Part shown: positions 3,097 to 6,941 of the stretch, one piece after another
How positions within the stretch are numbered: position 1 is the first letter of the stretch
How the letters are laid out: each line of letters starts with the position of its first letter
Program-made: the position numbers and the translations under genes
From: a virus
Taxonomy: Duplodnaviria; Heunggongvirae; Uroviricota; Caudoviricetes
DNA: 11,722 nucleotides
Direction: 5' to 3' (one strand)
Virus record (IMG/VR): IMGVR_UViG_2671180606_000004
Span: 1-11,722 of that record
The notes under the pieces: model-generated
Databases searched by the model: none
The model's input: the letters and a program-made list of their open reading frames with translations, nothing else
Told to the model about the DNA's origin: nothing

Positions 3097-3701
3097 GCGT
3101 TAGTTTCTCCACAGTCACGACACGCCACGGCGCCCGGAGCTGCACACTCGCGGGCGTCATTACTTTCTGAAATGCAAAAAATTTTGTAGACCAGTGCTGC
3201 ATGCTCCTGCAGCTTCGAAATTGAGAGGTAGAGCTCGTCATTAATTGCTGTCTTCTCATGCGGTTCCACTACACCGTCTTCGATTGCTGAACGAATCTGT
3301 TTTGAATAACTGCCGATCTGTTCAATGACTTCCAGCAGACGCTGGTTAATATCGGCGTTGTCCACATCCTCGACGTCAGGAAGAGACACAAAGACGCCAT
3401 TTGCAGACTGCGCCACAGCATCAGCAATGAAGTGAGTTCCACCAGCACGTTGCAAAATCATTGCCCATCCCAGCGGGAAAATCTGATCGCCATCGGCACG
3501 AAGGCGGTTAAATAATGCGTTCTCTGTTACATCCAGCCAGTCAGCAGCTTCAGCGTAACCCCCCGGCAACGCTGCGATAGTTTTTCTGACAGCTTTCACG
3601 TACCACTCAGGCTGTTTTTCTACTTTCCAGTGATGCTTACCCACGGTTAGCCTCATCGTTCTGTGGTTTCTGTTAATCGATTTATCCATTAGATTTTTCA
3701 T
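3093..3701 (-). CDS. Early regulatory protein in the cII position (CII/CP76-like or YdaT-like; family uncertain), about 202 aa
   Basis: ORF immediately downstream of the cro-like gene in the same operon. Start set at ATG 3701 (or 3689) rather than the track start 3758, which would overlap cro by 77 nt. Family assignment is by position and loose resemblance only. Confidence 0.55.
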
Positions 3702-3882
3702 AAAGCTCAGGTTTAAATGGCAACCGTCCGCAAGTTCTATATGCAGCTTCTGCTGCACGTCCTTTTGGAATTAACTGGCCCGGACGGTTTCGCCACTGAT
3801 AAACGGCTTCAGTTGTTATGCCGAAAAAAGCAGCAACTTTCTCAATACTGCCGAAGTAGCTTTCGATATCGTCAGTTGTCAT
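3682..3882 (-). CDS. Cro-like small HTH repressor (Cro/YdaS-type), 66 aa
   Basis: Small ORF divergent from the CI-like repressor; motif …[45 protein letters not shown] typical of Cro/YdaS-family proteins; GGAGGG Shine-Dalgarno upstream. Confidence 0.8.
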   Translation of the reverse strand: MTTDDIESYFGSIEKVAAFFGITTEAVYQWRNRPGQLIPKGRAAEAAYRTCGRLPFKPELYEKSNG

Positions 3883-3979
3883 ACGCCCTCCAAACTAAGT
3901 TTTATTAGATGCTAATTACAAATCTATCTTTGGTCAATAAAAACTAAGATTACTTAGTAATTAAAGAAATGGTGCTCCT
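3883..3979. promoter_or_regulatory. Divergent cI/cro intergenic control region: palindromic operator candidate ACTAAG-ATTA-CTTAGT (3943..3958), inverted repeat ATTAG-N3-CTAAT (3904..3916), two AACTAAG copies, candidate cro promoter on minus strand (-35 TTGACC 3932..3937, -10 TAGCAT 3909..3914)
   Basis: 97-bp AT-rich spacer between divergent repressor genes; perfect 6-4-6 palindrome; sigma70-like hexamers with 17-bp spacing read on the minus strand. Promoter assignment is by eye. Confidence 0.5.
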
Positions 3980-4606
3980 ATGGAAACGGTTGGTCAGCGT
4001 ATAAAAGCTCTGAGAAGAGTTACCAGAACGTCCCAGAAAGAATTGGGTAAATTTTGTGGAGTAAGCGACGTTGCTGTGGGGTACTGGGAGAAAGACATCA
4101 ATACCCCTGGTGGGGAGGCACTTTCGAAATTAGCGAAGTTCTTCAATACGTCAATAGATTACATTCTTTATGGTGCTGAGTTTGAAGGCAAACTCGTCAC
4201 AAACATGCGCAGAGTTCCTGTAATATCGTGGGTTCAGGCTGGGCAGTTTACTGAGTGCAGGGCAGCAGAAGTGTTTAGTGAAGTGGACAAGTGGGTAGAT
4301 ACATCATTAAAGATTGGTGATAACTCATTTGCATTAGAGGTTAAAGGTGACTCCATGACTAACCCTAATGGCCTCCCAACAATACCAGAAGGCGCAACAG
4401 TGATTGTAGATCCAGATGCAGAACCTCGTCATGGAAAAATAGTCATCGCTCGACTTGATGGAACAAACGAAGCTACAGTAAAAAAATTAGTCATCGATGG
4501 CCCTCAAAAGTTTTTAGTGCCATTAAATCCTCGGTATCCCAACATCCCTATCAATGGTAATTGCCTTATCATTGGTGTAGTCAAAGGAGTTCAATACGAA
4601 CTCTAA
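3980..4606 (+). CDS. CI-like prophage repressor: N-terminal XRE-type HTH plus C-terminal S24 (LexA/CI-type) autopeptidase domain, 208 aa
   Basis: HTH motif (QKELGKFCGVSDVAVGYWEKD…), catalytic Ser in GDSM and Lys in KKL with spacing typical of S24 peptidases; divergent from the cro-like gene. Confidence 0.9.
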   Translation: METVGQRIKALRRVTRTSQKELGKFCGVSDVAVGYWEKDINTPGGEALSKLAKFFNTSIDYILYGAEFEGKLVTNMRRVPVISWVQAGQFTECRAAEVFSEVDKWVDTSLKIGDNSFALEVKGDSMTNPNGLPTIPEGATVIVDPDAEPRHGKIVIARLDGTNEATVKKLVIDGPQKFLVPLNPRYPNIPINGNCLIIGVVKGVQYEL

Positions 4607-4690
4607 GACCTCTCTTCTCTAACTAAGGCACCGAACTAAGAAAAGTTTGGTGTTTTCTCTTGCCATAATAACTAAGTTAAGTTAGATTTT
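4607..4690 (+). promoter_or_regulatory. Candidate pL-like promoter/operator region downstream of the repressor gene: three direct AACTAAG repeats (4621, 4634, 4670) and possible -35 TTGCCA (4660..4665) / -10 TAGATT (4683..4688)
   Basis: Same heptamer as in the cI/cro spacer; hexamers with 17-bp spacing on the plus strand, pointing away from cI. By-eye call. Confidence 0.3.
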
Positions 4691-4812
4691 ATGTCAAAGA
4701 TAACGAACAGGCAGGACGCCCACGAAGTAGCCGCCTGGGGCATATGAAGTCCAGGATGATTCGTTGAGTCATGTTGTGCCACTAGGCACTCATGTTAAAG
4801 CAGGTGTATGAA

Positions 4813-5088
4813 ATGAAAGTCCAGATTTTAAACAATAACTGTGAAGTCGTTTGGTCATACGACATAGCCGCCCATGTAGATCAGAGCGGCGATAGCTGGG
4901 CCAATGGGAAACATCAGATTATGGCTGGAGTTGTATTCTCTTTACGCCGTGCTTTAGAACAGGCTGAAGTCTTTCCATCAGACCCTGAATGGAAATGGCC
5001 TTTTTCTATTTGTCCAAATTCGGAGAGTACATTTCAGAAAATTGGTCAGAAAGTCGCACTCGAAGAGCATCAGCCAACTGTTTCCTGA
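4813..5088 (+). CDS. Hypothetical protein, 91 aa (first ORF downstream of the repressor, N position of a lambdoid map; no N-like Arg-rich motif)
   Basis: ORF with AGGTG Shine-Dalgarno 7 nt upstream of ATG 4813 (track start 4792 lacks one). Its 3' end is overlapped by an equally plausible antisense frame (5006..5263, minus), so the call is uncertain. Confidence 0.4.
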   Translation: MKVQILNNNCEVVWSYDIAAHVDQSGDSWANGKHQIMAGVVFSLRRALEQAEVFPSDPEWKWPFSICPNSESTFQKIGQKVALEEHQPTVS

Positions 5089-5504
5089 TTTTTTCAGGTA
5101 ACTCGTCGGCATCGCAGAAACAACAACGCTCGATCATGTTGAAAGCCGATTCGTAGAACTGTTTTTGCTGAGTGTCGCTGAGACAGGAAAAGAGCGACGT
5201 TACGATGATTTTATTAATTGCATTATCAAGTTCTTTTTCATCAAAAGTTATTTGATTTTCCTTTTATGTATACGGGCTTAAAAGGATACCACCGAGCCTG
5301 AAGTGGTGAAAAGACAGGCACATAACAGCTAAGTATTTTCAACCAGAGAGAATCCTTAGCGTTGTGGTGAATGCGGCTCAGCGCACGCGGGTTAAGGTTG
5401 AGGCTGACAGTCGACCTTCTGTGGATACCCACCCGCCTGGTGTGCAACCTTCGCCAGGCACCGGGAGGCACCCGGCACCACAACTTTATGCTGTGTGTAG
5501 TCCT

Positions 5505-5552
5505 GGCGGTACCAGTTTGTACACTTGCTTCCGGCTGGTACCGCTCTTTTTA
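5505..5552 (+). terminator. Rho-independent terminator candidate: perfect 10-bp stem GCGGTACCAG/CTGGTACCGC, 19-nt loop, followed by TCTTTTTA
   Basis: Base pairing checked position by position (5506-5515 with 5535-5544); U-tract immediately 3' on the plus strand. Lies in an ORF-poor spacer upstream of the yfdP-like gene. Confidence 0.5.
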
Positions 5553-5688
5553 CAAAACAGAGAAGAGCATCACCGGACGACGGGCTCATAACCCAATCCA
5601 TCCGGGCGGCTGCCACCGCAGGTGTTCTTCTCTGTTTTGTGGAGAAACTAATCGGCCTTGCAGGGTCGATATGATGAGGAGCAACAAA

Positions 5689-6051
5689 ATGGCTAGCGAA
5701 CGCAGTACTGATGTGCAGGCATTTATCGGGGAGCTGGACGGCGGCGTATTTGAAACAAAAATCGGCGCAGTTCTCAGTGAAGTCGCTTCCGGTGTGATGA
5801 ACACGAAAACCAAAGGTAAGGTCTCACTCAACCTGGAAATCGAACCATTTGATGAGAACCGTGTGAAAATCAAACACAAACTCTCATATGTTCGCCCGAC
5901 TAACCGCGGGAAAATTTCCGAAGAAGACACCACCGAAACGCCGATGTATGTCAATCGCGGTGGTCGCCTGACTATTCTGCAGGAAGACCAGGGACAATTA
6001 CTGACTCTTGCCGGTGAACCTGACGGAAAACTCCGCGCAGCAGGTCATTAA
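5689..6051 (+). CDS. yfdP: YfdP-like hypothetical prophage protein, 120 aa
   Basis: ATG 5689 with GAGGAG Shine-Dalgarno 8 nt upstream; size and position match the yfdP-yfdQ-yfdR-yfdS block of CPS-53 as recalled. The track ORF start at 5371 is an upstream read-through of non-coding-looking sequence. Confidence 0.75.
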   Translation: MASERSTDVQAFIGELDGGVFETKIGAVLSEVASGVMNTKTKGKVSLNLEIEPFDENRVKIKHKLSYVRPTNRGKISEEDTTETPMYVNRGGRLTILQEDQGQLLTLAGEPDGKLRAAGH

Positions 6052-6116
6052 TATCGTTCTTAATTAACTGATTATTTATTTCATCACTGAATATCTTTAT
6101 ATAGTGAGGACTTATT

Positions 6117-6941
6117 ATGTCTCAGAACTTAGACGCAACCGCAATTAATCAAATCCATGCCCTTATTTCTGCTCAGGGTGTTAATGAAATTATCAGTAAG
6201 ATTGGTGCCGATGCTGTGGCATTGCCTGAGAATTTCCGCATTCATGATCTGGAAAAATTTAATTTAAATCGCTTCCGTTTCCGTGGTGCGCTTTCCACTG
6301 CCAGCATCGATGACTTTACCCGTTATTCTAAAGATCTTGCAGATGAAGGCACCCGCTGCTTTATCGATGCTGATAATATGCGTGCCGTCAGTGTGCTTAA
6401 CCTGGGTACTATTGATGAACCAGGTCACGCAGATAACACCGCCACTCTCAAACTGAAAAAGACAGCACCGTTCTCTGCTCTGTTGTCTGTTAATGGCGAG
6501 CGTAACTCCCAGAAATCACTGGCAGAATGGATTGAAGACTGGGCTGACTACCTTGTGGGCTTTGATGCTAATGGTGACACCATTCAGGCAACAAAAGCGG
6601 CTGCGGCGGTCCGTAAAATCACGATTGAAGCAAACCAGACCGCTGATTTTGAAGATAATGACTTCAGCGGCAAACGCTCCCTGATGGAGTCTGTCGAAGC
6701 GAAGACCAAAGACATTATGCCAGTGGCATTTGAATTTAAATGCATTCCGTTTGAAGGTCTGAAAGAACGTCCGTTTAAATTACGCCTCAGCATTATCACT
6801 GGCGATCGTCCGGTACTGGTTCTGCGCATTATTCAGCTGGAGGCGGTGCAGGAAGAAATGGCTAACGAATTTCGTGATCTGCTTGTTGAGAAATTCAAGG
6901 ACAGCAAAGTAGAAACCTTTATTGGTACTTTCACCGCCTGA
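6117..6941 (+). CDS. yfdQ: YfdQ-like hypothetical prophage protein (DUF2303-type), 274 aa
   Basis: Well-formed ORF with GAGGA Shine-Dalgarno; length and neighbourhood match K-12 YfdQ as recalled. Confidence 0.8.

Follow-up and report, generated by a model that had tools for sequence, protein, structure and literature searches.

The window analysed here, 11,722 nucleotides (nt) of IMG/VR virus record IMGVR_UViG_2671180606_000004, is an SfV-like lambdoid prophage. Within it, the 600 base pairs (bp) between orf33 and yfdP (positions 5089-5688) match Shigella phage SfV at 98.7% and several Escherichia coli chromosomes at 99.8% identity, and some part of this stretch is present in 2786 of 5426 complete E. 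coli genomes. The stretch is probably a mosaic of three parts, namely the 5' part of a minus-strand open reading frame (ORF), a prophage small RNA (sRNA) gene of about 190 nt and the structured leader of the operon that follows, and it contains no nut site (Table 1).

The original prediction, made from the sequence alone, had described the same 600 bp as GC-rich and devoid of a credible gene. Only positions 5360-5688 have a high G+C content (56%), the remainder (5089-5359) standing at 39-40%. Positions 5089-5251 lie in an 81-codon minus-strand ORF that matches phrog_3311 from end to end (E = 1e-55), and the rest is occupied by RNA genes. The description of the long ORFs as junk-like was borne out: those on the plus strand across 5364-5674 give low-complexity translations rich in Arg, Cys, Pro and Trp.

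Table 1. Features of the interval between orf33 and yfdP and of its surroundings (window positions).
Feature	Position	Strand	Basis or remarks
cro	3682-3882	-	SfV annotation and ORF list
cI	3980-4606	+	SfV annotation and ORF list
Likely left operator and promoter (OL/pL)	4620-4690	+	three ACTAAG operator half-sites; TTGCCA-17-TAGATT
orf33	4792/4813-5088	+	SfV annotation and ORF list
81-codon ORF (phrog_3311, function unknown)	5006-5251	-	5' 163 nt fill the left part (5089-5251)
Putative -10-like hexamer GAGAAT	5348-5353	+	7 nt upstream of the predicted RNA 5' end
Small RNA gene, ~191 nt, STnc100/PasD/sRNA-17 family	5360-5550	+	ends by homology to sRNA-17, mapped by rapid amplification of cDNA ends (RACE)
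Structured 5' domain	5361-5484	+	P1 5361-5369/5476-5484; P2 5373-5388; P4 5436-5458; P5 5461-5475
Unstructured linker, presumed seed	5485-5505	+	fold prediction
Intrinsic terminator of the sRNA	5506-5553	+	stem 5506-5515/5535-5544; U tract 5545-5553
Conserved leader RNA of the early-left operon, three-way junction	5550-5648	+	basal stem ~24 bp (5550-5574/5621-5642)
Leader arm A	5573-5605	+	invariant sequence; holds CGGGCUCAUAACCC (5581-5594)
Leader arm B	5606-5619	+	variable
Conserved GGAGAAAC	5641-5648	+	follows the junction
Second conserved leader hairpin	5651-5670	+	UGCA loop
Shine-Dalgarno GAGGAG and ATG (5689) of yfdP	5676-5691	+	
yfdP	5689-6051	+	SfV annotation and ORF list; then yfdQ, yfdR, onward to xis and int

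The small RNA gene and its terminator

The 3' boundary of the sRNA gene is a hairpin that had already been picked out as a 10-bp stem with a U tract. It consists of a perfect inverted repeat around a 19-nt loop, followed by TCTTTTTAC, and as RNA it folds with -21.2 kcal/mol (z = -4.0), which none of 200 shuffled sequences equalled. A simple promoter and terminator scanner did not report the 5506-5544 hairpin, since it allows loops of no more than 8 nt. The 3' end of a homologue of the mEp460 type, determined by RACE, falls in the U tract of an identical sequence (PMC7719688), and the hairpin travels with the sRNA, late-operon copies included. We conclude that it is a genuine intrinsic terminator and forms the 3' end of the sRNA gene, rather than a free-standing regulatory terminator of the tL or nut type.

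The Rfam model STnc100 (RF02076) aligned to the plus strand at 5331-5553 over its entire length (model positions 1-206 of 206). The match was seen in E-value mode with 46.5 bits (E = 1.1e-8) against a gathering cut-off of 47 bits, and a scan of the whole window at gathering thresholds returned no Rfam match. The homologues in Salmonella phage ST64B and Cronobacter phage phiES15 also match STnc100. The plus strand folds with -94.4 kcal/mol (z = -3.7), compared with -82.6 kcal/mol (z = -1.8) for the minus strand.

The ends of the RNA were placed through sRNA-17 of E. coli K1 RS218, a 193-nt RNA of an mEp460-like prophage that was mapped by 5' and 3' RACE and by northern blotting. It is repressed by ArcA, rises in stationary phase and was detected in the RS218 lysogen, in which yfdP gave about 0.5 reads (PMC7719688, Table 1 therein). 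Mapping the published primers onto phage mEp460 places sRNA-17 at 2354-2547 on the strand that runs from cI to yfdP, and the northern probe is antisense to that strand (PMC7719688). The 32-nt 3' primer equals window positions 5519-5550 exactly; at the other end, sRNA-17 starts with CGTTGTGGTGAATGCG, the first 16 nt being those of window positions 5360-5375. Since an RNA with the same start, closing helix and terminator has been seen in cells, the window RNA would by homology extend from 5360 to 5550.

The two RNAs have in common the locus between cI and yfdP, the first 16 nt and the P1 closing helix, and their terminators and downstream leaders are identical. In contrast, some 100 nt in the interior of the 5' domain are unrelated, and the linker reads AGCCACUGCUUUG in mEp460 and UUUAUGCUGUGUGUAGUCCUG in the window; megablast and blastn align only window positions 5504-5688 to mEp460. 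Judged by its sequence, the window RNA is an allelic variant of sRNA-17 and not the same RNA. The supplementary alignment of the sRNA-17 study lists CP018976, which is 99.8% identical to the window, as 'degenerate sRNA-17' (PMC7719688). Phage mEp460_4F5 carries a natural hybrid that combines the window core with the mEp460 linker. Control by ArcA and the blood-survival phenotype have been demonstrated for sRNA-17 only.

The closing helix P1 (GUUGUGGUG/CACCACAAC) bounds a multi-branch domain, which is followed by a linker of about 20 nt and then by the terminator hairpin. All conserved blocks and helices of STnc100 are found at 5361-5484: P1 with UGGUG/CACCA, the AAU, P2 with a UNNGC loop (here UCAGC) and P5 with CCGGG-AGGCA-CCCGG. 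To sample the family, we searched IMG/VR for a pattern of two conserved blocks, which retrieved at least 120 contigs with 73 distinct cores of 101-130 nt. In an alignment of 26 diverse members, P1, P2 and P5 are 89% paired, as against 37-50% when the partners are slid, and 43 alignment cells carry double-sided changes, compared with 17 +/- 3 in shuffles. P2 is mostly CCCCC-UNNGC-GG-N-GGG, but the lineage of the window has GCGGC-UCAGC-GC-A-CGC, in which every stem pair is replaced and the loop kept. P5 behaves alike in Klebsiella alleles, where CCGGG/CCCGG gives way to GGUGG/CCACC around the same AGGCA loop.

The 5' domain probably also contains a pseudoknot, absent from the Rfam STnc100 consensus structure. 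In the window, the candidate helix joins 5394-5400, 3' of P2, to 5445-5451 in the P4 loop (AAGGUUG/CAACCUU). Nearly all of the 75 cores examined offer a helix of 6-11 bp that joins the segment 3' of P2 to the hairpin loop preceding P5, with varying sequences, such as AAGGCUGG/UCAGCCUU in phiES15 and CCAGUC/GACUGG, CUGGUG/CACCGG and others elsewhere. In fixed alignment columns the pseudoknot and P4 are only 57-62% paired, because the register differs between subfamilies. A helix search sequence by sequence put it at a consistent position, but with a weak shuffle control (7.5 versus 6.3 bp).

The linker is the hypervariable part of the family, and other alleles carry quite different ones. In the window it contains UGCUGUGUGUAGUC (5489-5502), 14 nt that are identical to the conserved single-stranded segment upstream of the terminator of RprA (RF00034). 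The same segment is present in further alleles with unrelated terminators (E. coli, Salmonella, Cronobacter, Klebsiella, Citrobacter and others), and in the phiES15 allele the identity covers about 25 nt and reaches into the terminator, so that the Rfam RprA model scores 41 bits. Unlike RprA, the window RNA has neither the 5' hairpins nor the rpoS-pairing stretch, and the RprA model found no match in the window at E <= 10. Such variation and recurrence are the pattern expected of a seed region, which we presume the linker to be; the segment shared with RprA might instead be a site for Hfq or RNase E, or mimic a target. Alleles swap linkers like cassettes, and with the RprA-identical segment the prophage would be able to draw on an envelope-stress sRNA of the host or to compete with it.

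Canonical members of the family share with the window RNA UGGUGAAU, the P2 hairpin with its UNNGC loop, CACCGGGAGGCACCCGGCACCA and a variable tail ending in a Rho-independent terminator, and they too are prophage-borne; the window RNA differs in its P2 stem (GCGGC for CCCCC) and has extra internal arms. PasD1 and PasD2 were found by Hfq RIL-seq (ligation and sequencing of interacting RNAs), and they have a structure and probably an ancestry in common with STnc100 (bioRxiv 10.64898/2026.05.13.724894). STnc100/PasD copies of this kind belong to the late region, with Q or stx2B on their upstream side and nanS-p and the lysis genes on their downstream side (PMC12370729; bioRxiv 10.64898/2026.05.13.724894), whereas the window copy, fused to an operon leader, is found directly behind cI in the early-left region. 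The locus just after the repressor region is also that of the sRNA in ST64B, mEp460 and phiES15, whatever gene follows (yfdP, or kil in phiES15). There is thus an early-left lineage of the STnc100/PasD family at the immunity boundary, expressed in lysogens, and the family is not confined to the late, toxin-linked region. IpeX of the K-12 prophage DLP12 was considered as a further relative and set aside, the DLP12 late region giving no STnc100-like match.

A sigma-70 promoter logo built from 40 non-redundant upstream regions of the family has TTGAC at about -37 to -32 and TAAATT at -13 to -8 relative to UGGUGAAU, which would put the start of transcription at the base of P1. The window sRNA is likely to be transcribed independently as well.

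Upstream of the sRNA, a further conserved block (5286-5326; also L006 ~2440-2480, L243 and L251) consists of the hairpin ACCACCGAGCCTGAAGTGGT with GAAAAGACAGGCACATAAC after it. This block, in the Enterobacter (L243) and Mixta (L251) loci, leads directly into a linker and a terminator and resembles a miniature or internally deleted sRNA (GUGGUGAA...CACAAC). In Stx2a_1447 (L007 ~2250-2350), Salmonella 118970_sal3 (L010 ~1400-1500) and Klebsiella Kp4866-6 (L011 ~1265-1290), two pieces resembling tRNA T arms, CTGGTTCAATTCCAG and GTCCGTTCGATTCGGAC, lie upstream of the sRNA. Each is followed by acceptor-like bases, ARAGORN calls no tRNA there, and the pieces may be tRNA remnants or processing signals.

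A structured leader RNA ahead of yfdP

The original prediction had noted that no boxB-like hairpin follows the terminator. There is indeed no boxB, but a very stable structure follows directly: positions 5547-5645 fold with z = -5.7 into a three-way junction whose basal stem starts within the terminator's own UUAC. The junction is conserved in relatives from E. coli, Salmonella, Klebsiella and IMG/VR. Across 15 diverse sequences, 96.5% of the alignment cells are paired, compared with 38-53% when the partners are slid, and nine pairs show double-sided changes, one of them being C-G in eight sequences and G-C in seven. Positions that alternate between U-G and U-A make the structure specific to RNA of the plus strand. 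In the second leader hairpin, the relatives vary in the stem, but 101 of 111 copies have UGCA or GGCA as the loop. After it come a Shine-Dalgarno sequence and the first gene of the operon, which is not always yfdP.

Arm A is invariant in sequence, and its CGGGCUCAUAACCC is identical to the anticodon stem-loop of the E. coli initiator tRNA (metY, tRNA-fMet). Among its closest known parallels are tRNA-fMet and tRNA-mimicking mRNA operators such as the thrS leader, and it has 14 contiguous nt of the metY anticodon stem-loop, with the three G-C pairs and the CUCAUAA loop. It differs from tRNA-fMet in having no D arm or canonical T loop, and the place of the 'acceptor' is taken by the stem of about 24 bp inside an mRNA leader. 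ARAGORN called no tRNA in the window, nor did an Rfam scan of 4900-5900 by E-value.

An exact 22-nt core of the leader occurs in 23 of 185,579 species genomes, 22 of which are Enterobacterales and one a record titled Chryseobacterium sp. Rfam has no match for the leader, and our literature search found no earlier description of it or of a prophage mimic of the initiator tRNA. The leader is a well-supported structured RNA that apparently has not been described.

The leader also occurs apart from the sRNA. Two relatives, IMG/VR L198 and Mixta tenebrionis L246, have the junction but no sRNA. In both, the junction lies some 25-40 nt past a promoter that carries repeated operators, on the downstream side of a cI-like gene. 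The ORFs on the same strand downstream of the junction reach xis-like and int-like ORFs in L198; L246 was read only immediately around the motif. A sister form of the junction belongs to the late region of Klebsiella phages. It comes immediately behind the tRNA-Asn and tRNA-Arg genes, and its closing 6-bp stem is followed by ACCA, like an acceptor end; this form, too, is not called as a tRNA. In L135 (1511-1580), L134 (1511-1580) and other late regions of the Klebsiella type, the tRNA-like RNA beside the tRNA-Asn and tRNA-Arg genes lies downstream of Q and has, besides the 6-bp acceptor-like stem and ACCA, an elongated arm bearing a GGGCUCAUAAUCC loop and one further hairpin; tRNA finders do not report it.

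Transcription of the early-left operon and alternative readings

How the sRNA and the leader relate to the operon depends on where early-left transcription starts. The hexamer ACTAAG occurs seven times in the window, and six of the seven lie in two groups, one at the cro/cI operators (3894-3958) and one at 4622-4676. The latter group overlaps TTGCCA-17-TAGATT (4660-4688), the sole sigma-70-like site that a promoter scan found in 4600-6200, and AACTAAGTTAAGTTAG overlaps it as well. Positions 4620-4690 thus appear to hold OL/pL. This would make orf33 the first leftward early gene (the 'N position') and would place all of 5089-5688 between pL and the yfdP-xis-int genes, so that early-left transcripts would have to cross the sRNA terminator.

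By analogy with its relatives, the sRNA would be made in the lysogen and act in trans through Hfq, its linker pairing with mRNAs. Its terminator would incidentally shield the silent yfdP-xis-int operon from upstream transcription. The leader would be transcribed only when the terminator is read through and, as a processing site or a binding site for a protein or for the ribosome, may govern processing or translation of the operon mRNA. The suggestion that the terminator gates the excision genes in the manner of tL survives only as a consequence of its position between the likely pL/OL and yfdP-xis-int, as the hairpin is the 3' end of an sRNA. How the terminator is passed bears on prophage induction.

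Several observations weigh against this interpretation. The STnc100 score falls 0.5 bit below the curated cut-off; the shortfall arises because the P2 stem is fully substituted, and the alignment flags non-canonical pairs although pairing in the RNA's own register is intact. The core of the window allele differs from that of sRNA-17; the RNA ends and the expression in a lysogen are those determined for homologues, and the association with Hfq is that of PasD. The window allele also has no recognisable -35 element: GAGAAT stands at the right distance from C5360, the promoter scan gave no match there, and processing of a longer transcript is thus another possible origin of the RNA. A pseudoknotted 5' domain so conserved in sequence exceeds the needs of a base-pairing sRNA, and the family may therefore have another, possibly its main, activity; together with the tRNA-like leader, this domain hints at functions beyond the simple picture.

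The behaviour of a mutant points the same way. When sRNA-17 was replaced, yfdP rose about 95-fold and yfdR from 0 to about 8 reads (PMC7719688). Mapping of the primers indicates that the replacement left the terminator intact. Either the terminator leaks when transcription comes from a strong promoter upstream, or yfdP is repressed by the RNA as well. Given the presumed orientation of pKD3, we suspect read-through from the cat cassette, and the terminator would then leak under a strong promoter; the RNA may, alternatively, act on the leader as a repressor.

The hairpin itself ends a new allele of a prophage sRNA family already known, and is the ordinary part of the locus. The interest for further work lies in the leader and its fixed fusion to the sRNA, and the leader, with its copy of the initiator-tRNA anticodon arm, offers a testable entry to early-left operon control in N-less lambdoid phages.

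A more ambitious reading places the leader in an undescribed class of cis-acting RNA, one by which the beginning of the leftward early operon is marked in Enterobacterales lambdoid prophages that lack N and which works through tRNA mimicry, with the fused sRNA and its conserved pseudoknotted 5' domain belonging to the same control unit. We regard this as unlikely. One possibility within it is that RNase III or RNase P excises the leader and releases a tRNA-fMet-like decoy or regulator. Another is that a factor specific for the initiator anticodon arm attaches to the leader and thereby governs how the yfdP-xis-int transcript is elongated, how stable it is or how it is translated.

Another idea, which we consider improbable, is that the 5' domain of the sRNA, the leader, or both, form a cis-acting RNA that renders RNA polymerase resistant to termination, as put, a two-stem RNA of about 70 nt just downstream of pL, does in phage HK022, and so serve an early-left operon without N. 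The position is right, given that the leader follows the promoter and operator cluster by about 25-40 nt in L198 and L246 and, in L198, precedes ORFs that run on to xis-like and int-like ones. The leader is also independent of which gene comes first, and the conserved loops in both RNAs suggest that they bind a macromolecule. However, a comparison by eye of the HK022 pL-nun leader (putL) with the sRNA domain and the leader revealed no common sequence blocks and no likeness in architecture. The leader moreover lies after the terminator rather than before it, the sRNA accumulates in terminated form, and yfdP stays silent under conditions in which sRNA-17 is made (PMC7719688).

The regulated tL-type terminator or nut-like site envisaged by the original prediction, at which a boxA and a downstream structure would recruit Nus factors or an N-like protein and let induced pL transcription read into yfdPQRS-xis-int, is very improbable. 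As in the pL leader of lambda (nutL, with an RNase III-sensitive hairpin between it and N) and in HK022 putL, a structured RNA does stand at the start of a leftward early operon with xis and int at its distal end, and its stem of more than 20 bp is a plausible RNase III substrate. The terminator has to be passed from a pL/OL that is apparently upstream, and the leader follows the promoter and operator region directly in the two relatives that lack the sRNA. The reported string is present as well: CGCTCTTTTTACAAAA lies at 5542-5557, and its CGCTCTTT, with conserved fixed-loop hairpins downstream, is identical at 7 of 8 positions to lambda boxA. However, the string is made up of the terminator's 3' arm and U tract, and so stands partly inside the stem of a hairpin that travels with the sRNA into late operons. 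YGCTCTTT is found twice in the window against 1.0 expected, a count reached in 52 of 200 shuffles, and a search with the rrn boxA consensus at up to three mismatches did not find the site at 5542-5557. Nor is the string conserved: SfV has CGTCCTTTTT (its form of the shorter string being CGTCCTTT), Salmonella ST64B CGACCTTTTT and Klebsiella CGCCCTTTTT, and GCUCUUU is lacking in all three.

Where lambda has boxA, a small boxB hairpin and the N gene, the window has no conserved boxA, and downstream of the terminator stands a three-way junction with a 24-bp stem and a copy of a tRNA anticodon arm. The only PHROG match of orf33 is phrog_3195, of unknown function; orf33 and YfdP are not Arg-rich, have PHROG matches of unknown function only and, like the 81-codon ORF, have no match in Pfam, so there is no N-like arginine-rich gene among them. 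Nut-like antitermination, like the put-like kind, finds no support in the features compared, the boxA being unconserved and at chance level and a boxB and an N-like protein being absent; the boxA idea is refuted.

That the whole 600 bp is a single decayed protein-coding gene is scarcely credible: although the prokaryotic genome annotation pipeline (PGAP) places a 'frameshifted hypothetical protein' at window 5364-5674 in Ecol_545 (NZ_CP018976, L002 1776-2086; 99.8% identical) and several phage records annotate hypothetical proteins over the stretch, these ORFs lie on different strands and in different frames in different records, their translations are of low complexity, the core lengths (101-130 nt) differ by amounts that are not multiples of three, the substitutions are compensatory for RNA helices, G-U pairs included, and an RNA of just this extent was mapped by RACE and northern blotting in a homologue (PMC7719688). 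The pseudogene, which coincides exactly with sRNA plus leader, and the conflicting ORFs on both strands there probably reflect spurious ORF calls in a GC-rich, structured RNA. The annotation of the stretch, now blank, a frameshifted pseudogene or conflicting hypothetical proteins, should be corrected to an sRNA gene and a structured leader.

The minus-strand ORF and minor observations

The original prediction had also allowed for a decayed gene remnant, and this label fits only the left 163 bp, where the 81-codon ORF has lost its start codon; it fails for the GC-rich part. The ORF has a good Shine-Dalgarno sequence (AAGGA) and shares 83 nt with the 3' end of orf33. Its start codon is ATA in the window (5249-5251), for which reason the ORF was overlooked in the six-frame reading, and ATG in all of 14 relatives compared (phage 720R4, SfV, the 99.8% identical E. 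coli genome Ecol_545 and eleven IMG/VR relatives), in each of which the ORF is intact. The difference amounts to a single C-to-T change on the plus strand. A homologue search returned near-identical E. coli proteins only, which leaves no depth to judge whether the ORF is a real gene. On the best-supported reading it is a passenger that was disabled recently, its start codon having only just mutated.

A complementarity of 18 nt between 5113-5130 and 5358-5375 (78%) was considered as an upstream anti-P1 read-through element and set aside, as it is unconserved and probably due to chance. The SfV GenBank record places a 'putative rho-independent terminator' at window 5239-5271, distinct from the hairpin at 5506-5544. 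The sole hairpin at that annotation has an A+T-rich stem of 8 bp (5259-5266/5279-5286) without a U tract.

In the K-12 prophage CPS-53 (L133 4248-4604), the sRNA and the leader are both lost, and just the last 31 nt before yfdP are kept. Iteron-like repeats of the replication region (GATTTTGACGGGTCA...) adjoin these 31 nt. In the early-right region of Salmonella phage ST64B (L004 21-97, minus strand), we found a match to an isrK/C4-type antisense RNA with 64 bits, against a gathering score of 50, which is overlapped by a weaker c4-a1b1 match.

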